DNA from: a virus | Taxonomy: Duplodnaviria; Caudoviricetes | IMG/VR virus record: IMGVR_UViG_3300034062_004791 | Span: 1-58,867 of that record | Direction: 5' to 3' (one strand) | DNA length: 58,867 nucleotides | Shown: positions 7,681 through 58,865 of the stretch, piece by piece | Numbering within the stretch: the stretch's first letter is position 1 | Layout of the letters: every line of letters begins with the position of its first letter | Position numbers and translations under genes: made by a program | Notes under the pieces: generated by a model | Database searches by the model: none | What the model saw: only the letters and a program-made list of their open reading frames with translations | Told to the model about the DNA's origin: nothing

Positions 7681-8412
7681 TTACTTTTTGAGTGTGGGCA
7701 TAAGACGCAGACCATCTCGGAAGATTGCATTTTTAAGATTAGTTCTAAGGTCTGCAATCATTTCCAAAGTAAAGAGACTATTGGCCAAGAACATTTTCTC
7801 AAGTTCTTCCCGAATCCGCTCAATAGAAACCTTATGAAGCATTTCTGCCCCAAAGTCACTATTGACCGCATCCCAGGTGTTAGGTTCAATATCGAATCCT
7901 TTGGTGATATGGAACCTCAGGGCTCGCATAACCCTTAGACCATCTTCTGTGATTCGGTCGGTTGGATTACCAACAAATCGAAGAAGATTGTTGTTAAGGT
8001 CATCTAGGCCACCGAAAGGGTCAACTACTTCACCATTAAGGATGCAAAAAGAATTTACGGTGAAATCCCTTCTTTTTAAATCGTCCATCAAAGTTCCAGG
8101 TAGAACAAAATCAGGACGGCGACCATCAGTACTCGGACCATCTTTTCGGGCGAGAACAAAATCAGCAACGTTGGTGCGTTCTTTTAGTGGATGGCCATCA
8201 GGAACTTGTGCCCGAACAGTAAAGAATTCAGGAGTCTCAAGGAATACTTTGAATCCATTGTTTTTTAGATGTTCAACCAGATGGTTAAATGCGAACTCTG
8301 CATTTACAAACATATCGGGATTTTCTGGAATTGCAACAAAATCAACGTCTTTGGATTCTAGGCCAAGAAACTTGTCTCGGACTGCACCGCCGACTTCTGC
8401 AAAAGTAAACAT
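7681..8412 (-). CDS. cca: Class II tRNA nucleotidyltransferase (CCA-adding/polyA polymerase family), compact
   Basis: VGGAVRD...DVDFV, DLKRRDFTVN, EDGLRVMRALRF and SIERIREELEK motifs. Confidence 0.92.
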   Translation of the reverse strand: MFTFAEVGGAVRDKFLGLESKDVDFVAIPENPDMFVNAEFAFNHLVEHLKNNGFKVFLETPEFFTVRAQVPDGHPLKERTNVADFVLARKDGPSTDGRRPDFVLPGTLMDDLKRRDFTVNSFCILNGEVVDPFGGLDDLNNNLLRFVGNPTDRITEDGLRVMRALRFHITKGFDIEPNTWDAVNSDFGAEMLHKVSIERIREELEKMFLANSLFTLEMIADLRTNLKNAIFRDGLRLMPTLKK

Positions 8413-8573
8413 TAGTCCTGGAGTGAAGAAATAATTGTTGCTAATAGATTTAAAACTGCACTAGAACCACAAAACCCAACAAAGAATGGGAGTGAAACTT
8501 GAGCAGAAATGACTGCAAGAACACCAAAAATAAGTGCTCGTTGAAAATATGCGTTTGGGTTTTCGGAAAGCAT
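8412..8573 (-). CDS. Small membrane protein (53 aa)
   Basis: MLSENPNAYFQRALIFGVLAVISAQVSLPFFVGFCG...; stop overlaps the cca start; below the ORF-track cutoff. Confidence 0.6.
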   Translation of the reverse strand: MLSENPNAYFQRALIFGVLAVISAQVSLPFFVGFCGSSAVLNLLATIISSLQD

Positions 8574-16754: not shown

Positions 16755-16952
16755 TTAAAATCCCTTTGCTTTTTCCCTATGGTCTAACACTTCAACATAA
16801 TCTAAAAGTTCACTCGGGGTCTGAAACCAAGTTTGAAGTACGTCTTGATAATTATCGAATGTTCTTGTTTTTTTATTTATGAAATGGATTTTGTAGTCGT
16901 GACGTAAATAAGGCTCGTCTGATGTTTGTGTAAAGCTAATTGGATCGGTCAT
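16755..16952 (-). CDS. Hypothetical protein
   Basis: Start MTDPISF at 16952 with GGAG RBS, below a sigma70 promoter. Confidence 0.7.
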   Translation of the reverse strand: MTDPISFTQTSDEPYLRHDYKIHFINKKTRTFDNYQDVLQTWFQTPSELLDYVEVLDHREKAKGF

Positions 16953-16974
16953 GCTCCATCTGCTCTGGTGTCTC

Positions 16975-17003
16975 ATCTTAGCACGGGCCCGCCAATTTGT
17001 CAA
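16975..17003 (-). promoter_or_regulatory. Canonical sigma70 promoter
   Basis: TTGACA-17 nt-TAAGAT. Confidence 0.8.
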
Positions 17004-17043
17004 GCCCTAAAACCTATATAAATTAAGTTTATTCAAGGAGCCT

Positions 17044-17319
17044 ATGATTTCTATTAAAAAATTCTATTCAAACATAAAACTCGGTTGGTTATTAATTTTT
17101 GCCACCTTTACTTTGTGGAAAGATCACCTAAAATCCGAATCCACTTTTTGGGTTAATGGCATTTACTGTCTTGAGCAAGATCTATCCATGCCAACATTTA
17201 ATTGGTCAGATTATGAGTGTTTCATAAAAACCCAAAAGAAGCCAAGAGGTCGGGCAAAACCAAAATATCCAAACACAATTGCCGGGTTTTTAAAATGGCG
17301 TTCCGAATTTACTAAATAA
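17044..17319 (+). CDS. Hypothetical protein
   Basis: AAGGAG RBS; TATAAAT upstream; no competing minus-strand gene. Confidence 0.65.
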   Translation: MISIKKFYSNIKLGWLLIFATFTLWKDHLKSESTFWVNGIYCLEQDLSMPTFNWSDYECFIKTQKKPRGRAKPKYPNTIAGFLKWRSEFTK

Positions 17320-17556
17320 AACAGGAGACGAAATTCTCCTCTTTAGAGAATAAGATGTATTACTAAAAGATTCCAGAAATGGCTCTTTCATTAATGCTTC
17401 TCCTCTAATTGGGTAACATAATCCAATTCTAAGAGAAATAATCTCAGACGACTCATTTGCAGCCGCCTGTAGAGCCGACTCGTCTGACATTATGTCAGTA
17501 AGGAATTAGATTGTGTTACTAACAAACCACCCTTTCTTTCCTTAGGAGAAAAACAA
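17312..17556 (+). promoter_or_regulatory. Late promoter plus long structured 5' leader of the plus-strand cassette
   Basis: CTAAATA at 17312-17318; about 240 nt non-coding with several hairpins; AGGAG RBS. Confidence 0.6.
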
Positions 17557-18351
17557 ATGCCAGACACAGTTTATGCACCAGATCCCTGGTCTATTCTTGC
17601 CGGTCAGCACTCAGACATTCGTAGAGAAGGTTCTGTAGAGCGCGGCGAAATCCGTTATGATGTTGCTACTCGCGCAGCCGATAACCGTTATGCTACTGCA
17701 GTCGGTCAAGGCGAAATCAAGTATGCAATTGCCGAGCACTCTGAATCAACCAACCGCGATATTTTAACCACTGGTTATCATACTCAGGTAAAGGTTGATG
17801 AGGCCGCTGATAAGATTCAGCAAAGAGCCACTGATTTCTATCTTGCTGGTCAGGCAAGAGATTTTGATGCGGCTCGTGATGTTGCTGCCCTAAAGGCAAG
17901 TACAGACATGGCAACCCAAAAACTCAGCACCGAGATTCTTCTCACTGCTGAAAGGGGAGCCACTGCTACTGCTCTTGAGTCCGCTAAAGTTGCCGCTGCT
18001 GTTGCCCTAGGTCAATCTCAACTCAGCAAGGAAATTGCCGAGAGCAAGTTTGAGCTTAGCAAGCAGGTCGGTTATGAAAACGAGAAGACCCGTGACCTCA
18101 TCAATTCTCTCAAGAATGATGAACTCAATCGTCTTCTTATTGAGCGCAACACTGATCTTCAACATTGCCGCCACGACTATTGGGGTGCCAGAGATGGTCT
18201 CGTCAATACTCAATTTGCGGCCCTGTCTTCCCAGGTTAACTCTCAGCTAAATGCCCTAAACAGCCAAATTGCTGAGACCCGTCAAGGTATGGTTAACTTC
18301 GGGACCATGGCCGGTGTTGGTCAGTCCTCAACCAGCAACGCTGTACGCTGA
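17557..18351 (+). CDS. Ala-rich coiled-coil protein, probably structural and highly expressed
   Basis: 264 aa, helical; strong RBS; own terminator; C-terminal SQIAETRQGMVNFGTMAGVGQ motif. Confidence 0.85.
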   Translation: MPDTVYAPDPWSILAGQHSDIRREGSVERGEIRYDVATRAADNRYATAVGQGEIKYAIAEHSESTNRDILTTGYHTQVKVDEAADKIQQRATDFYLAGQARDFDAARDVAALKASTDMATQKLSTEILLTAERGATATALESAKVAAAVALGQSQLSKEIAESKFELSKQVGYENEKTRDLINSLKNDELNRLLIERNTDLQHCRHDYWGARDGLVNTQFAALSSQVNSQLNALNSQIAETRQGMVNFGTMAGVGQSSTSNAVR

Positions 18352-18370
18352 TTTAGTTCAGTAGTTATCT

Positions 18371-18395
18371 GGGGGAGTTACCTCCCCCTTTTTTT
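18371..18395 (+). terminator. Intra-operon rho-independent terminator
   Basis: GGGGGAG-TTAC-CTCCCCC-T7, immediately followed by the RBS of the next gene. Confidence 0.9.
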
Positions 18396-18411
18396 AAAAA
18401 GGAGAATAACT

Positions 18412-18957
18412 ATGGACTCAGCAGAAAGAAAACTCATTGATCTTTATAATCTTCTGGCCCAATATCAAAGAAATAATGACCCGGCCCTAGAGGGGGTTAT
18501 TAATTCAACTCGATCTGAAATAACATCGATATTGAATGATCGTGGTAGTGGTAAAACCGTCATCAAAATTGATGATAGGGACACTATCAACCACTGCAAT
18601 GAAGGCCCTCCAGGACCACCAGGACCCCCAGGACCCCCAGGACCACCAGGGGAGCCAGGAGTGTGTACCTGTAAATGCAAAAGCATCCTGGTTTCAGATG
18701 ATTATGATGCTACTTGCGATGATTACTATATCGGTGTCAACAGCAACGAACCTGTTACTATTACATTACCTGAAGACTGCATCGACTGTTGTGAGATCAT
18801 TGTAAAGGCAGAAATGGGTCCACCACTCGGAAATCGTAAAGTCACCATTACGACTTCGGATGGCTCATTAATTGACGGTGATGATGAGTATGTTATTGAA
18901 GTACCTTATGATTCAATCAACATAATTTGTCGCGGCGGCGATTGGCACATTATTTAA
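18412..18957 (+). CDS. Cys-rich short-collagen protein with C-terminal beta domain
   Basis: (GPP)4-GEP-G followed by VCTCKC; DDYYIGVN..VTITLP...IDG...WHII domain of the type seen at phage fibre tips. Confidence 0.85.
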   Translation: MDSAERKLIDLYNLLAQYQRNNDPALEGVINSTRSEITSILNDRGSGKTVIKIDDRDTINHCNEGPPGPPGPPGPPGPPGEPGVCTCKCKSILVSDDYDATCDDYYIGVNSNEPVTITLPEDCIDCCEIIVKAEMGPPLGNRKVTITTSDGSLIDGDDEYVIEVPYDSINIICRGGDWHII

Positions 18958-18966
18958 TTTAGAACC

Positions 18967-19764
18967 ATGAAATTTAATATTAAATCATCTCAAATTGACA
19001 CTAGAGATTTTATTTACAGAAACGATAGCACAGAGGTCTTGCGGGAATCCGTAGATCTCCGTGAATGGGATACAATTGTCGAATCGCAAGAAGATTTAGG
19101 TAGTTGCGCCGCCAATGCAATAACAAATGCCTATGAACTTTGCGTTAATCGAAATTATCCTGAACAGTTTACTCATCTAAGTAGATTATTTGTTTATTAT
19201 AATACACGCCTTGAGCACGGAATAATCGAAGAAGACGAGGGAATGTTTCTTAGGGATGGTATGAAATCATTATCCAAATATGGAGTGTGTTGTGAAAAAT
19301 TATGGCCTTATGGTATAGACAAATTTAACATAAAACCAAGTGAAGAGGCATATGAGGACGGTATAAAAAGAAAAATTCTTAATTACCAAAAACTCATAAG
19401 CACCTATTATATTGCCCAGGTGATAAACAACAACAAACCAGTTGTATTTGGAATGACCATTTATGAAAGTTTTATGGATCTAAATGAGCGTATTTCTACT
19501 GTTACTTTTCCTTCTAGAAAGGAAAGAAATCTTGGAGGCCATGCTATGTGCATGGTTGGTTATGATTTAAATAAGAGACTATTTTTGGCAAAGAATAGTT
19601 TTGGGTCTGATTGGGGAGACAACGGCTATTGTTGGATTCCTTTTGATTATATTGAGAAAGAGGCATACGACATTTGGACATTTGAAATCCCACCCCAAGC
19701 AGGAGAACTCAATGTACTACCCCTACCCATACTATCCGTACCACAGGCGGAGATATTGTTATGA
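18967..19764 (+). CDS. Papain-family (C1A) cysteine protease
   Basis: VDLREW, QEDLGSCAANA, GGHAMCMVGY and KNSFGSDWGDNGYCW; catalytic Q/C/H/N all present. Confidence 0.93.
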   Translation: MKFNIKSSQIDTRDFIYRNDSTEVLRESVDLREWDTIVESQEDLGSCAANAITNAYELCVNRNYPEQFTHLSRLFVYYNTRLEHGIIEEDEGMFLRDGMKSLSKYGVCCEKLWPYGIDKFNIKPSEEAYEDGIKRKILNYQKLISTYYIAQVINNNKPVVFGMTIYESFMDLNERISTVTFPSRKERNLGGHAMCMVGYDLNKRLFLAKNSFGSDWGDNGYCWIPFDYIEKEAYDIWTFEIPPQAGELNVLPLPILSVPQAEILL

Positions 19765-19840
19765 GAACTATTATTGGAACAGGTGCTATCCATATTACAA
19801 CAGATGGTATCCATATTATTCCTACTACCCCTATTATTAA
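19712..19840 (+). CDS. Tyr-rich peptide (42 aa, 20 Tyr)
   Basis: MYYPYPYYPYHRRRYCYENYYWNRCYPYYNRWYPYYSYYPYY; AGGAG RBS lies inside the protease 3' end. Confidence 0.75.
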   Translation: MYYPYPYYPYHRRRYCYENYYWNRCYPYYNRWYPYYSYYPYY

Positions 19841-19852
19841 GGAGACTTAAAA

Positions 19853-20101
19853 ATGCATTATCGATTTAGACCTTATCCTTATTATAGGCGGTATTATAAT
19901 ATTGATCCATATTATTACAGGAGATATTATCCTTATAATGTGATTGATAGCCAAATTGCCAATATCGATCAAAACATGATCAATTTTGGTGATATGACAA
20001 ATGTTACCCAGGACGCGGACATTTACCAGTTGAGAAGTCCAGAAACAGAAAAAACCAATGAACCACCCGAAGAAGATGGATCATTGGTTGTGGCCACATA
20101 A
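19853..20101 (+). CDS. Tyr/Arg-rich protein carrying a motif shared with 17557..18351
   Basis: AGGAG RBS; Y/R/P N-terminus, then SQIANIDQNMINFGDMTNVTQ, then an acidic tail. Confidence 0.8.
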   Translation: MHYRFRPYPYYRRYYNIDPYYYRRYYPYNVIDSQIANIDQNMINFGDMTNVTQDADIYQLRSPETEKTNEPPEEDGSLVVAT

Positions 20102-20116
20102 TTTACCAGGCGGTGT

Positions 20117-20401
20117 TTACCCATCGCCTTCTTCTTTTGTAATGCAATCAGACTGAAAAATCTTTTCTAGTTCTTTAAGTTCCTTGGGTGCAACCGCGAC
20201 CCATTCTTTTTTAATGTCTAGAAAAGTCTCCCAAATCGGAACACCATCAGATTCCATTCTTCGGTAAAAAACTCCTTTATAAGGTGCGAAATATTGACCC
20301 GTGAAGTTCCTAGAAATTTCTAGTTTTGGGGTTTTTAGATCATCTAGAGTTTGTTGGAGAGTGTTAATTTGGTTTTGTATTTCTTCGATAGTTAGTGACA
20401 T
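20117..20401 (-). CDS. Hypothetical protein
   Basis: Short coiled-coil N-terminus. Confidence 0.7.
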   Translation of the reverse strand: MSLTIEEIQNQINTLQQTLDDLKTPKLEISRNFTGQYFAPYKGVFYRRMESDGVPIWETFLDIKKEWVAVAPKELKELEKIFQSDCITKEEGDG

Positions 20402-29309: not shown

Positions 29310-29855
29310 TCATTTTTTCAAAGAGTAAAGGAGTTTTGCGATTTGTTCCTCGGAAAGGTCTTTGATTGCTTCTTTTGCCTTTTCTACTGCCTCATCAGTT
29401 GGCTCATCAAAGGTTTCTCTGGTTTTTATTTCGTAGGCCCCTTCACCGTAGATTTCTTCAATATCCCATCTATCATCAAATTGGGGGTTATGGGGAGTTC
29501 CATTCTTCCTATACTCCATGAGTGCGTGAATATACCAAATATTCTTGGATTTTTTTTCAATGTCCCTGAGGAGATATTTACCCGACTTAAACTTCACATA
29601 AACTGTTTGTCCCTCAAAATCCCCAAGATTGATGTTGGGGTAGCGTTGGGCGGGTCCATTCATAGTGTCAATTACAGTGATTGTAGCAATTTGGGGCATA
29701 CTGGCTCCCTCACCAGTGAGAGTAAATCCCCAGCCAGCAACAACGTATGAGTATTTTAAATGATTACTAGTACTAACTACTCCAACACATGGTTGAGCTC
29801 CATTGTCAAAAGTGCATTTAACTTTCTTTCCAACATACTTGGACAGGTCAATCAT
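29310..29855 (-). CDS. Paralog of 1526..2056
   Basis: MIDLSKYVGKKV...PNINLGDFEGQTVYVK...EIYGEGAYEI...SEEQIAKLLYSLK; promoter element at 29883-29942. Confidence 0.8.
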   Translation of the reverse strand: MIDLSKYVGKKVKCTFDNGAQPCVGVVSTSNHLKYSYVVAGWGFTLTGEGASMPQIATITVIDTMNGPAQRYPNINLGDFEGQTVYVKFKSGKYLLRDIEKKSKNIWYIHALMEYRKNGTPHNPQFDDRWDIEEIYGEGAYEIKTRETFDEPTDEAVEKAKEAIKDLSEEQIAKLLYSLKK

Positions 29856-43808: not shown

Positions 43809-45395
43809 TTAAGCGGCCAGCTCATTGGTTCTAATCTCAAGGGCCTTTTTGAATGCCTTAGAAAACTCTTCTTGTTCTGCATAATTTAGACTGGTATTAC
43901 ATTGCTTTTTAATTTGAATAACCTTAAAGTTTTCTTCTTCCAACTTGGCCTGAATAGTCAGGTATGGAGCATTTTCTTTAAGGGCCAAGATAATAAAATG
44001 ATTCTTCTTTAGAATACCATCTGAATAAGTAGAACTACCTACGCAGTTTCTGGCAACCCGGCCATAATGTGAAAGTTGATAAGTCGATTGGGGCTGAAGG
44101 AAAGTTAGGCCATCAACCTTAACGGGAGACGGAAAAAGATCCTGGGGAAGATCTACATTTTTGTGGTTACATTTCCACTGTTCGGCCATAATCCAATCAT
44201 GAAATTCTGCTGCCCTCCAGCGTCCGGAGTATTTCAATTCCATATCTGGTTTGTAATAAAAAACATCCCCAATCATGCTAATTGTGTCTTTAACCACAAT
44301 AGGCGAATTAATAAACATATTCACAAAAGACTTTACCGGGACATTTTCTTGGACCCAAATCATTTGGGGCTGTCGAAAGGTATAGCCAGAATAAAAAATA
44401 GAACTCTGACGAAAATCATGATCCATCGACCAGATCTGTTGAAGATAGTCCAGAGACATTTTTTCTCCATAAAGATTAATCAAGACATTCAAGACATTTA
44501 GTCTATTGACAATTGATGCATGTTTATGAGAAATAAGATGCTCATAGTCTCTGTTAGATTTCCATTCTGGTGGATTATTAAAAGTATCAATAATCCAAAG
44601 AATATCTTGATTGATTACCTTTTTAAAGAAAGGAGTATTGATAGCCTCTTTGAGTTCTCTGGAATGATACCTACTAATATTCAAATAATAATCAATATCT
44701 GGAACCCAGTGGAAATCATTTTCTTGTGTCCAATTAGACAAAACCACCGCCAAGGACCGATTATATGAATAGAACATATTATACATATTAGATTCTATCT
44801 TAATATGTTTTTGAAGTTTACTGATAAAACCATCCCTGGCAGCCTGTTCCGGTCCAGGCTGATTATACGTATTACCAAAGGGTGTCACCATCTGATAGGT
44901 GTGATTCTTTAGATCCTCTGGAGTCACACTACGGAAAAGATAAAGATATTCTTTTTTATTATGGAACCGAGAAGTAAAATCTTCTTCTTTTACATTAAAA
45001 GTTTTAAAATAATAACCATCCCTATACGTCTTAAGAGACTTAAGATTTCTTACACACAAGGAATAATTAAATACAACCTCCTCACTATTATCAAACCAAA
45101 TCGCATACCAGAAGCGGTTACCGATTTTTGTTACAATAATGGTATTTTCTCCTGATACAGTAGCAGAAGTTGCATAGTGATTATAATAGGGATCGGTATG
45201 CCTGTTTAGTGTCTCAATAATATTCTTGAGCCGTTCTTTAGGTAGGATATTTTCTGGAACCAGATTTTCTGGAATTCCGGCCTTTGGGAAAGTTGGTTTG
45301 GTGCTTGCTGGCTTTTTAGGGGCCACTGGTTTTTTTACATCATAATCCTCTACTTTTACATAAAGAGGCTTGGGGATAGTAAAATTCAACATCAA
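43809..45395 (-). CDS. PcfJ-like domain protein
   Basis: C-terminal FHD...LSHYGRVARNCVGSSTY...PYLTIQ pattern. Confidence 0.7.
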   Translation of the reverse strand: MMLNFTIPKPLYVKVEDYDVKKPVAPKKPASTKPTFPKAGIPENLVPENILPKERLKNIIETLNRHTDPYYNHYATSATVSGENTIIVTKIGNRFWYAIWFDNSEEVVFNYSLCVRNLKSLKTYRDGYYFKTFNVKEEDFTSRFHNKKEYLYLFRSVTPEDLKNHTYQMVTPFGNTYNQPGPEQAARDGFISKLQKHIKIESNMYNMFYSYNRSLAVVLSNWTQENDFHWVPDIDYYLNISRYHSRELKEAINTPFFKKVINQDILWIIDTFNNPPEWKSNRDYEHLISHKHASIVNRLNVLNVLINLYGEKMSLDYLQQIWSMDHDFRQSSIFYSGYTFRQPQMIWVQENVPVKSFVNMFINSPIVVKDTISMIGDVFYYKPDMELKYSGRWRAAEFHDWIMAEQWKCNHKNVDLPQDLFPSPVKVDGLTFLQPQSTYQLSHYGRVARNCVGSSTYSDGILKKNHFIILALKENAPYLTIQAKLEEENFKVIQIKKQCNTSLNYAEQEEFSKAFKKALEIRTNELAA

Positions 45396-51354: not shown

Positions 51355-52587
51355 CTACTTACTAATTTCCTGAGACACTGTTTCTCCCAGGGTAAAACTT
51401 TTGTAAATGACCGTTTCTACTGCTTCCGCAACTTTCTTTGAATAAGAATCAAAAACTGGCAATACAATCAGACCATAAGGCTTTACATAATTCCTATAAT
51501 CACATGCACGCAATTCACCAGATACAATTCGATCTGAATCGTTTTTATGAAGACGAATTACACGACCAACAGTTTGGACCATATCAATAATAGACATATT
51601 CCTTAGGAAGATTACTGAATCAAGACCAACCACATTGATTCCTTCTCCTAGGATACTGTAATTGAGCACCACAAATTTCTTTTCTTCATCATTACCCCAC
51701 TCGTTAAGGGTCTTGAAGAAGTCGGCTCTTTTGACCTCTTTCCCATCAATATAACACCCATGTTGTGAGGTAATATGCATAAGACTATAATCTCTTTCTT
51801 TTAGTTGTTCTGCAAAATCAGTTTCACTGATCAATGAAATAATTGATTTAGTAGACTTTGCGGCAATAAGAACCTTGGATGCATTTTCTTCATCAAGGGT
51901 CTTTAGGATCAGGTTACAATTACGTTCATCAATATTCTCACTATTTTCTACTTCTTTTTTTACAACCAATGGTGGAATAACAAAACCCTGGTCTACCATT
52001 TGGGTCATTGGGACACTACAAAGAATTTCACCATAGACTTCTTTGATATTCATTCCTGGTTTTTTATCAGGAATAAGGGAGTTTTTAGGGGTAGCCGTAA
52101 AGAAGTATTTTTTGTTTGCAGACTTGACTGCGTCTTCAATATGGGGAAAGAAGTTTTTCTTTACCGAGTTGTGACATTCATCAAAATTGTATGTATCAAC
52201 CTTAATTCCAGATTCGATTACTTTCTTTAGGGAATTATAAGAAGTAAAGATTAGTTTATGGTGGTCTTTATGGATATTATGCCATTCTTTAAGATTTTGT
52301 GGATCAGTTGTTCTATAATGTTTGAATTTAGATCCAGAATGAATATGAATAAACTTTGCATTAGTAATAAACTTCTCATATTCTTGAGACAGTTGAGAAA
52401 CAAGAAGAAGTCTTGGTGCAACAACACAAACAGTCTGAGGAATAGATGATTCAAACTGTTTAATTGTATTTTGAATAAAAATAATAGACTTACCAGCACC
52501 TGTTCCTAGGATAATTGAACCATTATCATTATGATGCATCTGATGCAATGCGTCTTGTTGATGTGGTCTGAGAATAATAGGAGTCAT
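51355..52587 (-). CDS. SF2 DExH helicase
   Basis: LRPHQ, GTGAGKS, FDECH, FTATP, GEGIN and QTVGRVIR motifs. Confidence 0.92.
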   Translation of the reverse strand: MTPIILRPHQQDALHQMHHNDNGSIILGTGAGKSIIFIQNTIKQFESSIPQTVCVVAPRLLLVSQLSQEYEKFITNAKFIHIHSGSKFKHYRTTDPQNLKEWHNIHKDHHKLIFTSYNSLKKVIESGIKVDTYNFDECHNSVKKNFFPHIEDAVKSANKKYFFTATPKNSLIPDKKPGMNIKEVYGEILCSVPMTQMVDQGFVIPPLVVKKEVENSENIDERNCNLILKTLDEENASKVLIAAKSTKSIISLISETDFAEQLKERDYSLMHITSQHGCYIDGKEVKRADFFKTLNEWGNDEEKKFVVLNYSILGEGINVVGLDSVIFLRNMSIIDMVQTVGRVIRLHKNDSDRIVSGELRACDYRNYVKPYGLIVLPVFDSYSKKVAEAVETVIYKSFTLGETVSQEISK

Positions 52588-55978: not shown

Positions 55979-57727
55979 TTAACTAATAGTAGATTTTAAA
56001 ACTGCAAAACGAATTACTAAAGCCTGAGAAAGCGCACCAGCAGTAACATTACGAACAGCTATTGATGCTGAGCCAGATGAACATGAGGCATTGAGTGTAT
56101 ATGAGCCTAAAGTTCCAACTGACCCCATATTTAAAATCAATAGGTCTGTTTCCCCAATCTTATTATTAGTTAGTGTAAATGTAACTGTAGTATTTGCGGC
56201 AAGTGATGCACCATTCATTGTAATTGAACCACAAAGAGTATTTAATGTTACTCCAGTACTTTTATTAGTAGTTTGAGTAACTTCACCACCAGCCCCAGTT
56301 CCATATCCAAAAGAACCTCCAATACTCAATTGCCCACCAAAGGGTAAAATTGAAACAGTACCATCAGCATCAACATCAATACTAGGAATACCAGAAACAT
56401 CATTCACAGAAAAAATAGAACCACTGGTAAGATTATTCGTAATTCTAAATAATTGACCAGAAGATGCTTCCCAAGACAGAGTTCCACTGTCTAAATTGTC
56501 ATAATGCATATTTTTAATAATAGTTCCAATTCCAACCGTCCCAATTCCAGAAACATTTCCAGTATATGTAAGAGAGCTAGAACCAGTAGCTACATTGGAT
56601 GAGTTTTTATAGATAATTTGATTTGCACTACCTTCCACTGGTCCAGTAATACCTTGAATACCTTGAGTTCCGGTAGTACCTTGAGTACCTGTGGTTCCTT
56701 GAGTACCTGTAGTACCTTGAGTTCCTGTAGTTCCCTGGCTTCCTTGAGTACCTGTAGTACCTTGAGTACCTGTAGTACCTTGAGTTCCTGTAGTTCCCTG
56801 AGTTCCTGTGGTTCCTTGAGTACCTGTAGTACCTTGAGTTCCTGTAGTTCCCTGAGTTCCTGTGGTTCCTTGAGTACCTGTAGTGCCTTGAGTACCAGTT
56901 AATCCTTGTCTACCTTGGATTCCTTGAATACCTTGAGTTCCGGTAGTACCTTGAGTTCCGGTAGTACCTTGAGTTCCTGTGGTTCCTTGAGTACCTTGAG
57001 TTCCTGTGGTTCCTTGAGTACCTGTAGTACCTTGAGTTCCTGTGGTTCCTTGAGTACCTGTAGTACCCTGAGTTCCGATAGTACCCTGAGTACCAGTTAA
57101 TCCTTGTCTACCTTGGATTCCTTGAATACCTTGAGTTCCTGTAGTACCCTGAGTTCCGGTAGTACCTTGAGTTCCTTGAGTTCCTGTGGTTCCTTGAGTA
57201 CCTGTAGTACCCTGAGTTCCGATAGTACCCTGAGTACCAGTTAATCCTTGTCTACCTTGGATTCCTTGAATACCTTGAGTTCCTGTAGTACCCTGAGTTC
57301 CGGTAGTACCTTGAGTTCCTTGAATTCCCTGAACTCCTTGGATACCTTGAAGTGCTGCTGTTGCAATTGCTTCCCACTTGATGCCAGAACCAGTAGATAG
57401 TAATACTGATGTTGCAGTTCCTACATTATTACTACTATCTTTTAAAGCACCAACAACTTTAATATAACTATCTGTTTGTCCTAAACTTACTGTCTTATTT
57501 GTAAGACCTCTTATTTCACCATCCTGCTCAAAAATAATATCTACATTATTAACACCATCACCAATAAAAATATCTCTACTTGTATCACCTAAAGTTAAAT
57601 CGCCACCAGGATTTGCGATATTAAGATTACCATTATCATCTAATTGAATAGTAGCACTTGATATACCAATGTTACCTTGAAAATCCACTAGGCCCGAGGC
57701 AGGCGTTATGATTACATCTTTGGGCAT
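55979..57727 (-). CDS. Collagen-like tail/whisker fibre protein
   Basis: Long uninterrupted G-X-Y (GTQ/GTT/GIQ) tract; SIFSVNDVSGIPSI motif; beta-rich C-terminus. Confidence 0.9.
   Translation of the reverse strand: MPKDVIITPASGLVDFQGNIGISSATIQLDDNGNLNIANPGGDLTLGDTSRDIFIGDGVNNVDIIFEQDGEIRGLTNKTVSLGQTDSYIKVVGALKDSSNNVGTATSVLLSTGSGIKWEAIATAALQGIQGVQGIQGTQGTTGTQGTTGTQGIQGIQGRQGLTGTQGTIGTQGTTGTQGTTGTQGTQGTTGTQGTTGTQGIQGIQGRQGLTGTQGTIGTQGTTGTQGTTGTQGTTGTQGTTGTQGTQGTTGTQGTTGTQGTTGTQGIQGIQGRQGLTGTQGTTGTQGTTGTQGTTGTQGTTGTQGTTGTQGTTGTQGTTGTQGTTGTQGSQGTTGTQGTTGTQGTTGTQGTTGTQGIQGITGPVEGSANQIIYKNSSNVATGSSSLTYTGNVSGIGTVGIGTIIKNMHYDNLDSGTLSWEASSGQLFRITNNLTSGSIFSVNDVSGIPSIDVDADGTVSILPFGGQLSIGGSFGYGTGAGGEVTQTTNKSTGVTLNTLCGSITMNGASLAANTTVTFTLTNNKIGETDLLILNMGSVGTLGSYTLNASCSSGSASIAVRNVTAGALSQALVIRFAVLKSTIS
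56645..57350. repeat. 9/18-bp tandem repeats encoding the collagen tract
   Basis: Units such as accttgagt and tcctgtagt; a GIQGIQGRQGLT block recurs three times. Confidence 0.9.
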
Positions 57728-57728
57728 T

Positions 57729-58865
57729 TTAAATTATGCTTCCTCCAAGTCTTAATTTGGGTAAAGTAGGACTATCTTTAGTATATATGAGTCCTGTAGC
57801 AGGCCCAAAACCACTATTTACTCCATTATCATTTGTGATTGGGAATGGATATGGTTTATCCAAAAAGATATTCATTGGTTTCATCCAATAACCTTCACTT
57901 GCATTTACATTATCTACGTGAACTCCCACATTTATGTTTCTTGAGAATGAAACTGGATTCACAGTTAATGTTTTGGTTTCATAGGAACCTACTGCAGCAA
58001 TCGTATACTGAGTAACAGTTGAACCACCAGTTACAATTGAACTATAATCTCCGCCAGCATTTGCTAATCTATTTGGACCAACTGCAGAAACAACATCTCT
58101 TACTTCAAGTCTTGGATAGTTTCCAGAATAAGGACTATAAAGTTTAATCGCACAAGAGACATTAAGAGTTGTATTTGCAGGCACATAAACAGAAACCATA
58201 AATCCAAGTCCATAATCATTTATTTCTGTTGAATGTAAAACTCTCCAAGCAGTTTCATTTGCATCCCAATATCTTTCAACTCCATAACCAAACTCACGAA
58301 TTGCATCAATCTCAAAGTTATGTTCTAAAGAAGTTGCAGTTTGACGATTTGTTCCTCTGTCTATGTGAGTTCCGTGATATTGTGACCTTACGGTTGTTCC
58401 TGGTGGATTTGAGTTTTCATTTGCAAGACCACTTAATCTTGTGTGATATGAATAGGAAATAATTGACGATACTCTTTCACAATACATTCCGTGCCTGGAA
58501 CCAGTTGATTTTATTTTGTAATTACTTGGTGAAGTACTAGATGCAAAAAATAAACTTTGTTCGTTTCCACCATCACCAATGAAATGATGAACTCCTATAT
58601 TAGTATCAAACTGAATAATTCTTGCTTGCCTATAATTTCTTGAGGAATAATTATAAGCAAATTCTCCCCATTCCGCCATATGTTCATTTCTATATCCCGA
58701 AGCATTACTTCCAGATGCTATACAGTTATAAGCACAACCACCTTCGTGATACCAACCAGGAGTTATAGCAGAGTTAAAAATTCCAACAACAGAACAACAT
58801 CTCAATTGCCCGTATCTTGCTCTATTAAACAAACCACCTAAATCTCTTGTACTATTACTTCCGGT
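57729..58865 (-). CDS. Partial large virion/tail-associated protein (5' end outside the window)
   Basis: Frame is open to the window edge; beta-rich; adjacent to the fibre gene. Confidence 0.8.
   Translation of the reverse strand, partial: TGSNSTRDLGGLFNRARYGQLRCCSVVGIFNSAITPGWYHEGGCAYNCIASGSNASGYRNEHMAEWGEFAYNYSSRNYRQARIIQFDTNIGVHHFIGDGGNEQSLFFASSTSPSNYKIKSTGSRHGMYCERVSSIISYSYHTRLSGLANENSNPPGTTVRSQYHGTHIDRGTNRQTATSLEHNFEIDAIREFGYGVERYWDANETAWRVLHSTEINDYGLGFMVSVYVPANTTLNVSCAIKLYSPYSGNYPRLEVRDVVSAVGPNRLANAGGDYSSIVTGGSTVTQYTIAAVGSYETKTLTVNPVSFSRNINVGVHVDNVNASEGYWMKPMNIFLDKPYPFPITNDNGVNSGFGPATGLIYTKDSPTLPKLRLGGSII

Follow-up and report, generated by a model that had tools for sequence, protein, structure and literature searches.

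Among described systems, those nearest to the locus analysed here are the collagen-like fibres of phages, the fibritin of phage T4, the xylellain-type C1A cysteine peptidases and the protein coats of bacterial spores. T4 fibritin (encoded by wac) forms whiskers, each a coiled-coil trimer that ends in a small folding domain at the C-terminus. The spore coats and exosporia of Bacillus and Clostridium contain the collagen-like BclA together with Cys-rich proteins and Tyr/Pro-rich proteins of the CotT type, the latter processed by the protease YabG. Two further general properties bear on the comparison: repeats of 11 residues occur also in surface-coating proteins, and a Tyr-rich composition with Arg is typical of self-associating sequences. 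We know of no phage copy of a xylellain-type C1A peptidase that has a known substrate.

The window (the whole stretch of virus DNA that was analysed, 58,867 nucleotides) carries on its plus strand a cassette of five genes, g1 to g5, that recalls each of these systems in part. Like the spore coat sets, the cassette combines collagen-like, Cys-rich and small Tyr/Pro/Arg-rich proteins with a cysteine protease, and in distant lineages a gene of the GerE-type helix-turn-helix (HTH) lies upstream of it; unlike them, it belongs to a phage with a cyanobacterial host and is without homology to them. Neither a CotH-like nor any other coat family was found in Pfam, among NCBI-named families or in PDB, and the alignment with BclA (1wck) is confined to the Gly-X-Y run. 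The likeness to spore coats and exosporia drawn in a preliminary description of the locus is one of composition only, the sole BclA match falling in collagen repeats, and the cassette products, which have no homology to the BclA C-terminal domain, CotH, CotT or YabG, are not classed as spore coat or exosporium proteins. A literature search turned up no described system with the makeup of the cassette, in agreement with what had been said of phages. The carrier is a large T4-like virus of freshwater-type cyanobacteria, and we propose, with a probability of roughly 0.45, that uncultured T4-like (Kyanoviridae-type) jumbo cyanophages carry the cassette as an accessory structural module, which would add a fibrous appendage or coat to the virion with g1 made in excess.

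Layout and RNA elements of the island

All five plus-strand ORFs are present in the window as had been described, with g4 starting at an inner ATG at 19712. The extent first given to the island holds for these genes and left out a sixth, up0 (17044–17319, plus strand), which is the first gene of the island and encodes a basic protein of 91 aa with a hydrophobic N-terminal segment. Relatives of up0, which has no Pfam or PHROG match, occupy the same position in close loci (49–90% identity) and form a family kept in 7 lineages. The remaining plus-strand ORFs of at least 120 aa (2364–2792, 7862–8434 and 29343–29750) each overlap a longer minus-strand ORF, so that at this length the cassette is, as claimed, the only multi-gene plus-strand island in the window. 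A terminator-like hairpin found in the terminator scan (20108–20137, plus strand) closes the island and abuts the end of a convergent minus-strand gene (20117–20401). In a complete genome 97% identical to the window (G001), some 90 kb separate the cassette from the capsid gene, which is on the other strand; the genes around the cassette are small and unnamed.

A promoter-like A/T motif, CTAAATAA (17312–17319, plus strand), overlaps the stop codon of up0; the aligned site reads TATAAATAA in six relatives. The motif had been taken for a late promoter and is here called promoter-like only: the window copy differs from the T4 late consensus TATAAATA. The consensus is enriched neither in the window (2 found against 5.6 expected) nor in the complete relative genome (25 copies, the control giving 26), and it is missing from the approximately 90 non-coding nucleotides that precede the capsid gene in G001 and in a second genome, G002.

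The leader of g1 consists of two plus-strand elements. The first hairpin (17343–17408), almost invariant in sequence, encloses a mini-ORF, ATG TAT TAC TAA (17355–17366), and its 15-mer ATGTATTACTAAAAG is exact in 54 of 102 loci, many of which are close-clade duplicates. The second, a long imperfect hairpin (17411–17520), is a conserved structured RNA. Over the whole leader RNAalifold returns 54 pairs, 10 of them with compensatory changes, against 5.5 ± 1.4 in the control (none of 500 shuffles reaches as high, and slid versions give 0–2), and the stretch 17320–17560 has a minimum free energy of −68.2 kcal/mol (z = −5.43). Rfam gives no match at E ≤ 1 on either strand of 16900–20300; the g1 leader is a covarying structured RNA outside known Rfam families.

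The spacer between g1 and g2 contains a further plus-strand hairpin from the terminator scan (18371–18395; GGGGGAG/CTCCCCC followed by T7), whose 7 pairs, 6 of them GC, and T run are those of a predicted Rho-independent terminator, in keeping with the strong internal terminator described earlier. A GC-rich hairpin stands at the same place in all 19 relatives with a short g1–g2 spacer, with differing stem sequences, and is followed by at least 4 T in 15 of the 19 (alignment read by eye). Such conservation of a hairpin with differing stems fits an excess of g1 over g2–g5, and hence the earlier suggestion of a major subunit made in excess; we propose that the hairpin is an attenuator that sets g1 above g2–g5.

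Proteins of the cassette

The proposed major subunit, g1 (17557–18351, plus strand), is an acidic, helical protein of 264 aa made of 24 repeats of 11 residues. At periods 11 and 3.667 only 3–6 of 500 shuffles reach its hydrophobicity power, as against 203 of 500 at period 3.5, and the lengths of 120 listed relatives peak at 242/243, 253, 264, 275, 286 and 297, in steps of 11. The C-terminal tail of 25 residues, ETRQGMVNFGTMAGVGQSSTSNAVR, is near-invariant even where overall identity falls to 31–40%. The family is virus-only: its 981 relatives are all metagenomic and none is named, no relative was found in prokaryote genomes, two divergent queries found no match in 50,697 phage records, and Pfam has no match. 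As in T4 fibritin, a helical rod of variable repeat number is conserved at its ends and carries a small C-terminal cap that hardly varies; unlike the heptads of fibritin, with their period of 3.5, g1 has the periodicity 11/3.67. No sequence or profile similarity between the two was found, and no Pfam, PHROG or PDB match of note. With an 11-residue period and no similarity to wac, g1 is not assigned to the fibritin-like whiskers, the likeness being architectural only.

The product of g2 (18412–18957, plus strand; 181 aa) comprises an N-terminal helix, six Gly-X-Y triplets (residues 65–82), a CxCxC motif into which G83-V-C85 leads, and a C-terminal domain of about 100 aa. With 9 Cys in all, it is Cys-rich, as had been said, and a putative mini-collagen. 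The window protein, having six triplets only, scores 20.5 bits against Pfam Collagen, below the cut-off of 27.2; in its relatives the run extends from about 6 to about 30 triplets (alignment), the family profile matches collagens strongly, and PHROG tail-fibre families match the collagen part. Conservation of the Cys motif that follows the run hints at locking by disulfides outside the cell.

The C-terminal domain resembles predicted models in the Atlas (TM 0.86–0.94 by query) that are C-termini of viral proteins, in clusters with Collagen, DUF5661, Peptidase_S74, Mtd_N or T4_gp9_10_N. A profile of the domain (A6) finds the last approximately 85 residues of gp279 of Synechococcus phage B3 (E = 2.6e-9), which its depositors annotate as 'tail fiber protein' and which sits between the portal and scaffold genes, and in G001 a 219-aa ORF directly after the Gp20 portal gene (E = 1.6e-23). 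Below the cut-off lie Pfam Phage_depo_C (6 of 24 members, best E = 0.0053) and T4_gp9_10_N (2 of 24 members, best E = 0.008); the best sub-threshold PDB matches include tailspike 7rej (E = 0.13) and a baseplate connector. Judged from its sequence, the domain is akin to proteins of structural gene clusters, and the predicted models and the depositors' annotation make it a probable beta-rich domain of phage fibre type. Collagen-like phage fibres, such as B3 gp279 and a 582-aa collagen protein of the window itself (55979–57727), likewise join a Gly-X-Y run to a distal beta domain; g2 differs from them in being very short, with a CxCxC motif and 9 Cys, and in being encoded away from the structural cluster and always paired with g1.

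The papain protease reported in the cassette is intact: g3 (18967–19764, plus strand; 265 aa) is a xylellain-type C1A cysteine peptidase that exceeds the cut-off for PF00112 Peptidase_C1 (52.9 bits against 20.7; E = 7e-14) and matches PDB 3ois_A, which we take to be a xylellain-type entry, over residues 10–239 (E = 2.3e-36). All 16 aligned sequences have Q41, C47, H192, N210 and W216, and g3 is predicted to be catalytically competent. It is the short bacterial form, with no inhibitor or prodomain family in the Pfam scan, and its N-terminus, MKFNIKSSQIDTRDF, read without a signal-peptide predictor, is not hydrophobic; reading the N-termini of g1–g5 by eye likewise revealed nothing like a signal peptide, as previously noted. 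Like xylellain-type enzymes (3ois), g3 matches over its full length, keeps Gln, Cys, His, Asn and Trp and is without prodomain or signal peptide; unlike others of the type, it lies inside a cassette of structural appearance, and its 3' end overlaps a Tyr-rich ORF. A role as head protease is ruled out, since G001 encodes its own prohead protease (Peptidase_S77). Tailed phages are reported to have acquired xylellain-type C1A genes repeatedly (PMC10380794).

That overlapping ORF is g4 (19712–19840, plus strand), which is in another frame than g3 and is preceded by AGGAGA; its 42 aa include 20 Tyr (47.6%, the 48% of the earlier account), 6 Pro, 5 Arg and 2 Cys (pI 9.0). An intact g4 follows g3 in 14 of 14 close loci examined. 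The last gene, g5 (19853–20101, plus strand; 82 aa), encodes a Tyr/Arg/Pro segment (residues 1–28, with 12 Tyr and a net charge of +4.6) and an acidic remainder made up of a part resembling the g1 tail (residues 29–55) and a Pro/Glu tail. The resemblance amounts to 13 of 27 identical residues (BLASTP, E = 3e-7), and a g1 profile finds g5 in the relative genome (E = 6.1e-5). Differences by codon position number 625/502/1270 in g4 and 611/440/1183 in g5, a substitution pattern that marks both Tyr-rich ORFs as coding.

Conservation of the module

Synteny was assessed over 52 fetched g1 loci, 40 of them distinct and all viral. In each of the 36 distinct loci with at least 900 nt of flank, g2 lies directly downstream of g1; where the flank reaches at least 4.5 kb, a Tyr-rich ORF is present in 26 of 32 loci, g3 in 18 of 32, and both together with g2 in 17 of 32. 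Gene order and co-occurrence persist across lineages down to 31% g1 identity, while neighbouring genes outside the module vary from lineage to lineage; distant lineages show the order HTH/sigma-like gene, g1, g2, Tyr-rich g5-like gene, coiled-coil gene (F6), g2 paralog and g3. Proteins with the g2-type domain number 2–6 per locus (74 copies in 38 sources). Given this synteny in many viral contigs, the arrangement is more than chance. The idea of a five-gene unit survives in its core, which is g1 and g2, and fails for the protease as an obligate member: g3 is missing within 5.5 kb in 14 of the 32 loci and a relative of it stands alone in Burkholderia phage FLC9, so the protease link is facultative. 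The nearest isolate, Synechococcus phage B3, has neither g1 nor g3.

Interpretation and significance

Of the forms suggested earlier (an intracellular matrix, an occlusion-like body or a virion cloak), a virion-attached structure is favoured over the intracellular ones because the g2 C-terminal domain, probably of phage fibre type, is found in structural gene clusters. Transcription would start upstream of the structured leader of about 200 nt, which probably stabilises or processes the mRNA, and most transcripts would end at the hairpin after g1, so that g1, an alpha-helical rod of hendecads whose C-terminal cap is conserved, would be made in large excess and g2–g5 in minor amounts by read-through. 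The g2 product would form a short trimer—N-terminal helix, collagen run, CxCxC and a distal beta domain of the virion-fibre kind—that the CxCxC motif could lock by disulfides once outside the cell. As a cytoplasmic papain-type peptidase, g3 may trim precursors, the best candidate site being the motif common to the g1 tail and g5; a cut in g5 would separate its sticky basic Tyr/Arg/Pro segment from the acidic tail, and g4 and the g5 N-terminus may act as cement or cross-linkers. Several observations weigh against this virion module: a strong excess of g1 over g2 misfits a simple 1:1 shaft-and-tip fibre, the cassette is far from the capsid gene in G001, B3 has neither g1 nor g3, g1 is without a match among the phage records, and the protease link is facultative.

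The distance from structural genes also suits an assembly inside the cell, in which g1 would polymerise as a matrix, inclusion or condensate, g4 and g5 would supply sticky contacts and g3 would mature or release it. The absence of signal peptides, the apparent set-up of g1 for very high expression (hairpin and leader), the 11-residue repeats and the make-up of g4 and g5 (Tyr at about 48%, plus Arg) count for it, but we consider it unlikely: the g2 C-terminal domain is shared with proteins of virion structural clusters, the kept Cys motif would be useless in a reducing cytoplasm, and the loci hold no hint of cargo or of a release mechanism. The strict adjacency of g1 and g2 and the several g2-type proteins per locus could instead mean that g1 is an assembly factor for g2-type fibre proteins, made in excess as other fibre chaperones are and docking through its invariant tail, with g3 removing g1 or a pro-segment and the final structure containing g2 paralogs only. 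This is doubtful, as variation by whole 11-mers is characteristic of structural rods that set a length, not of chaperones, g1 resembles no chaperone family in Pfam, PHROG or PDB searches, and tail-fibre assembly genes usually lie downstream of their own fibre gene.

For g3 alone, a host target (surface layer proteins, wall peptides, or takeover or lysis targets) might be considered, its linkage to the cassette then reflecting co-regulation only. The facultative distribution of g3, the solitary copy in FLC9 and the repeated acquisition already mentioned agree with this, as does a C1 domain heading a 753-aa Alicyclobacillus phage protein labelled 'endolysin' in its record; some relatives, moreover, add after g5 a coiled-coil protein with a C-terminal membrane segment that matches DUF7201 and, weakly, a holin PHROG (8.5e-4). 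Yet g3 has no wall-binding or secretion signal, is fixed, where present, at the module end beside g2 paralogs, and has g4 nested in its 3' end in all 14 close loci, and we regard a host-directed role as improbable. That the five genes are unrelated morons merely side by side is very improbable indeed: nothing of substance speaks for it apart from the varying flanks, and it is contradicted by the synteny counts, order and adjacency being kept at 31% g1 identity over several genomic backgrounds, and by the motif common to g1 and g5. A more elaborate form of the proposed structure, which we hold to be a long shot, is a protease-matured coat: an excess hendecad rod capped or bridged by a disulfide-knotted mini-collagen and cemented by peptides of Tyr, Arg and Pro, which are freed from acidic pro-segments by a papain-type peptidase dedicated to that task. 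It would be a cross-linked extracellular virion cloak or an intracellular body, a convergent analogue of the spore coat, some lineages having a sigma-like regulator of their own and others a novel structured leader RNA.

In environmental phages, accessory fibres and coats determine which hosts are infected, how stable the particle is and how it attaches. The present case is that of a whole module, conserved in many uncultured jumbo cyanophages, without a characterised member. It brings together a large protein family restricted to viruses, whose members have a clean repeat of 11 residues and a tail that does not vary, a papain-type peptidase linked in a phage to structural-looking partners, extreme Tyr-rich peptides that are evidently under selection, and an unclassified structured leader RNA. 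If the cross-linked coat were true, it would represent a novel kind of viral armour.

The cassette and its source virus

The preliminary description had listed five plus-strand genes, and all five ORFs were found in the window: g1 (17557-18351, 264 aa), g2 (18412-18957, 181 aa), g3 (18967-19764, 265 aa), and the Tyr-rich ORFs g4 (19712-19840) and g5 (19853-20101, 82 aa). The fourth is an inner ATG ORF of 42 aa, 20 of them Tyr, which has AGGAGA upstream and, read in a different frame, overlaps g3 at its end. Upstream of the five lies one further plus-strand gene, the sixth (17044-17319), which is kept in the close clade, the loci nearest the window. The set had also been described as the only plus-strand island, which it is, because every remaining plus-strand ORF of at least 120 aa overlaps a longer one on the minus strand. 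Elsewhere the window is a minus-strand gene run, most of it without names; it includes genes for an RNA-ligase-like protein (PF09414; 49942-51276), a DEAD/ResIII helicase (51355-52587), a PcfJ-like protein (43809-45395) and a DUF7441 protein (16755-17003). The window's second fibre-type gene, on the strand opposite to the cassette, encodes a 582-aa collagen-repeat protein (minus strand, 55979-57727) with strong PHROG tail-fibre matches (5e-50); next to it is an unnamed 367-aa ORF (minus strand, 57729-58832).

The window is a 58.9-kb fragment, from a viral record judged 24% complete. Synechococcus phage B3 (taxonomically Kyanoviridae) is a relative by the window's large genes, the RNA-ligase-like ORF being 58% identical. 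Two complete related genomes, G001 (249,820 bp) and G002 (258,362 bp), have terminal repeats and a T4-type Gp23 capsid gene; the cassette proteins of G001 are 93-98% identical to the window's, and G001 keeps the T4 order (sheath, tube and Gp20 portal and, further on, Peptidase_S77 prohead protease, scaffold and capsid). In some relatives psbD (photosystem II D2) lies a few kb from the cassette (L008:5967-7028, L010:4131-5192). Given the B3-like genes, the Gp23 capsid, the T4 gene order and psbD near the cassette, the source element is, as judged from gene content, a T4-like jumbo cyanophage; a search of the literature on jumbo cyanophages and B3 found no primary description among the results listed. 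A Dps/ferritin-like gene is found downstream of the cassette in three relatives (L023, L026, L028).

Conservation of the cassette across viruses

Scans of IMG/VR yielded 52 loci for g1, 18 for g2 and 31 for g3, and 40 distinct g1 loci were left once identical g1 DNA was removed. In all 36 distinct loci that extend 900 nt or more past g1, g2 directly follows it; where at least 4.5 kb was available, g2 was present in 32/32, a Tyr-rich ORF in 26, g3 in 18 and all three in 17. These counts bear out the expectation that the cassette genes co-occur elsewhere, and a failure to co-occur, which had been named as grounds for refutation, is clearly not what is seen. The obligate core is g1 and g2, and the protease g3 is facultative. 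Among 50,697 phage records, no match was found to the DNA of 17000-20400, to g1 (queried with the window protein and a 31%-identical relative) or to a co-occurring family from the distant loci.

Order in the close clade is invariable: g1, g2, a Cys-free g2 paralog in some, g3, g4 and g5. Downstream of g5, five relatives encode a 140-aa protein that combines a coiled coil with a membrane segment at its C-terminus (L011:4113-4535, L010:9300-9722, L018:7688-8110, L023:9348-9770, L024:9226-9648); its Pfam match is DUF7201 (3e-26), and it has a weak match to a holin PHROG. In some, a Pro-rich (PEPV)n protein is present too; both proteins are absent from the window. Lineages with 31-48% g1 identity to the window have a longer island (a GerE/sigma-70 region 4 gene, g1, g2, a Tyr-rich g5-like ORF, a coiled-coil family, a g2 paralog and g3), and the genes flanking it vary among them. 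The gene directly upstream of g1 in L035-L053 (for example, L038:5110-5838) encodes a protein of 200-290 aa, with a Pfam match to the GerE/sigma-70 region 4 domain at 1.7e-16 and a PHROG labelled 'sigma factor', and a TAAGTA(A/T)TAT-type motif recurs ahead of g1 in the distant lineages; the protein is a candidate dedicated regulator, with the motif as its possible site. This regulator is absent from G001 and G002, the two complete close-clade genomes. In a further lineage (L091, L094-L096; for example, L094:2528-3808), g3 ends a long series of short fibre-like genes, whose products include several proteins with g2-type domains, one with an Ice_binding-like domain (3.6e-30) and repeated MYKKITH...EEHF proteins. 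The short loci L094, L095 and L096 show no g1 within their span, and L091 opens with a g1-like ORF (113-673).

RNA elements and Tyr-rich peptides

The g1 leader (17320-17556, 237 nt) is better conserved than coding DNA and has a predicted fold of -68.2 kcal/mol (z = -5.43). Ten pairs show compensatory changes; shuffles give 5.5 +/- 1.4 (0/500 as high) and slid controls 0-2, a comparison biased in the structure's favour by the use of one nine-sequence alignment for both prediction and covariation test. The leader, which matches no Rfam family, is by these comparative measures a conserved structured RNA with covarying pairs. G-U pairs point to the plus strand; since they do so, and since its frame is not open in relatives (aligned sequences, by eye), a minus-strand ORF at 17290-17490 (66 aa) was rejected. 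The leader also holds a mini-ORF, ATG TAT TAC TAA (Met-Tyr-Tyr-stop), upstream of a cassette that encodes Tyr-rich peptides; it is exact in the close clade but loses its stop in the relative L023, and attenuation through this leader peptide was set aside.

The strong terminator claimed inside the cassette corresponds to a hairpin with T7 at 18371-18395 in a terminator scan, which places another terminator-like site downstream of g5. A hairpin is present between g1 and g2 in 19/19 short spacers, with unrelated stem sequences, and is followed by at least four T in 15 (by eye).

Both g4 and g5 are intact in the 14 close loci inspected, and their pairwise differences by codon position (625/502/1270 for g4, 611/440/1183 for g5) fall mostly at third positions; this excess therefore identifies them, on substitution pattern, as protein-coding in these frames. 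A basic Tyr/Arg/Pro head (+4.6) of g5 is followed by a g1-like motif and an acidic tail (-9.4 overall). The motif, xMxNFGxMxxVxQ, is that of the g1 C-terminus (13/27 identical, E 3e-7), and the g1 profile picks up g5 in G001 at 6.1e-5. The g5 layout suggests that it may be a pro-protein.

Protein families and the probable role of the cassette

For g1, a set of 5.8 billion proteins gives 981 relatives at E <= 0.001, and none of the 120 matches listed bears a name or a Pfam domain. Profile searches gave no match in B3, chance-level matches only in PDB, and 52 pattern matches with none confirmed in 185,579 prokaryote species genomes. The length of g1 is 24 x 11 residues, its hydrophobicity has power at 11 and 11/3 residues (3-6 of 500 shuffles reach it) and lacks it at 3.5, and relatives' lengths, among the 120 matches listed, cluster at 242/243, 253, 264, 275, 286 and 297. 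It is thus predicted to be a hendecad-repeat helical protein whose length varies in whole repeats; the last 25 residues are near-invariant, even at 31% overall identity. GvpC-like, LEA-like and apolipoprotein-like readings of the 11-mers found no family match and were set aside.

Four parts emerge from the g2 alignment: a conserved helix at the N-terminus, six to about 30 Gly-X-Y triplets, a CxCxC motif and a C-terminal domain of about 100 aa. In the Atlas, the modelled domain resembles the C-termini of viral proteins (TM 0.86-0.94, by query), and the clusters of its neighbours carry Collagen, DUF5661, Peptidase_S74, Mtd_N or T4_gp9_10_N; the matches found directly in PDB and Pfam fall below threshold but are all alike in type (tailspike, baseplate connector, Phage_depo_C, gp9/10). 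Searching with a profile built from this domain only hits the extreme C-terminus of B3 gp279 (E 2.6e-9), an 876-aa 'tail fiber protein' encoded between the portal and scaffold genes. In G001 it hits a 219-aa ORF that directly follows the Gp20 portal gene (E 1.6e-23; C1:128453-129112, equal to L105:6454-7113), ends in the g2 domain and lacks collagen and Cys. The two genes occupy the same place.

Mainly because of this likeness to phage structural and fibre proteins, a virion-attached structure would be the preferred cassette product; assembly of the products inside the cell is a less likely reading. Animal collagens have disulfide knots, which the Cys motif right after the g2 collagen run resembles; we infer that this motif may be used outside the cell. 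That g1 is an assembly factor rather than a component is likewise less likely. The protease g3 exceeds the Pfam C1 cut-off, matches the bacterial cysteine protease 3ois (which we take to be xylellain) at 2.3e-36, and keeps its Gln, Cys, His, Asn and Trp in 16/16 sequences. It is not considered the head maturation protease, because a relative genome has its own T4-type Peptidase_S77, adjoining the scaffold gene. According to a paper on the papain family, Myoviridae and Siphoviridae each gained short xylellain-type C1A peptidases on their own, and the passages concerned assign them no role (PMC10380794). A g3-type peptidase stands alone in phage FLC9, and a long Alicyclobacillus phage protein labelled 'endolysin' begins with a C1 domain; a protease directed at the host is a further, less likely reading.

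Each part of the cassette is of a familiar kind (collagen-like fibre, C1A peptidase, coiled-coil rod, terminator). No earlier description of the combination, the g1 family, the Tyr-rich peptides or the leader RNA emerged from the literature searches or the family libraries, and the results listed for a phage system of this makeup held nothing relevant. The simplest account, to which we give a probability of about 0.45, is that the cassette is a regulated structural module: g1 would be its major component, g2 a minor fibre protein of virion type, and the g3 protease and Tyr-rich peptides its maturation and cementing parts.
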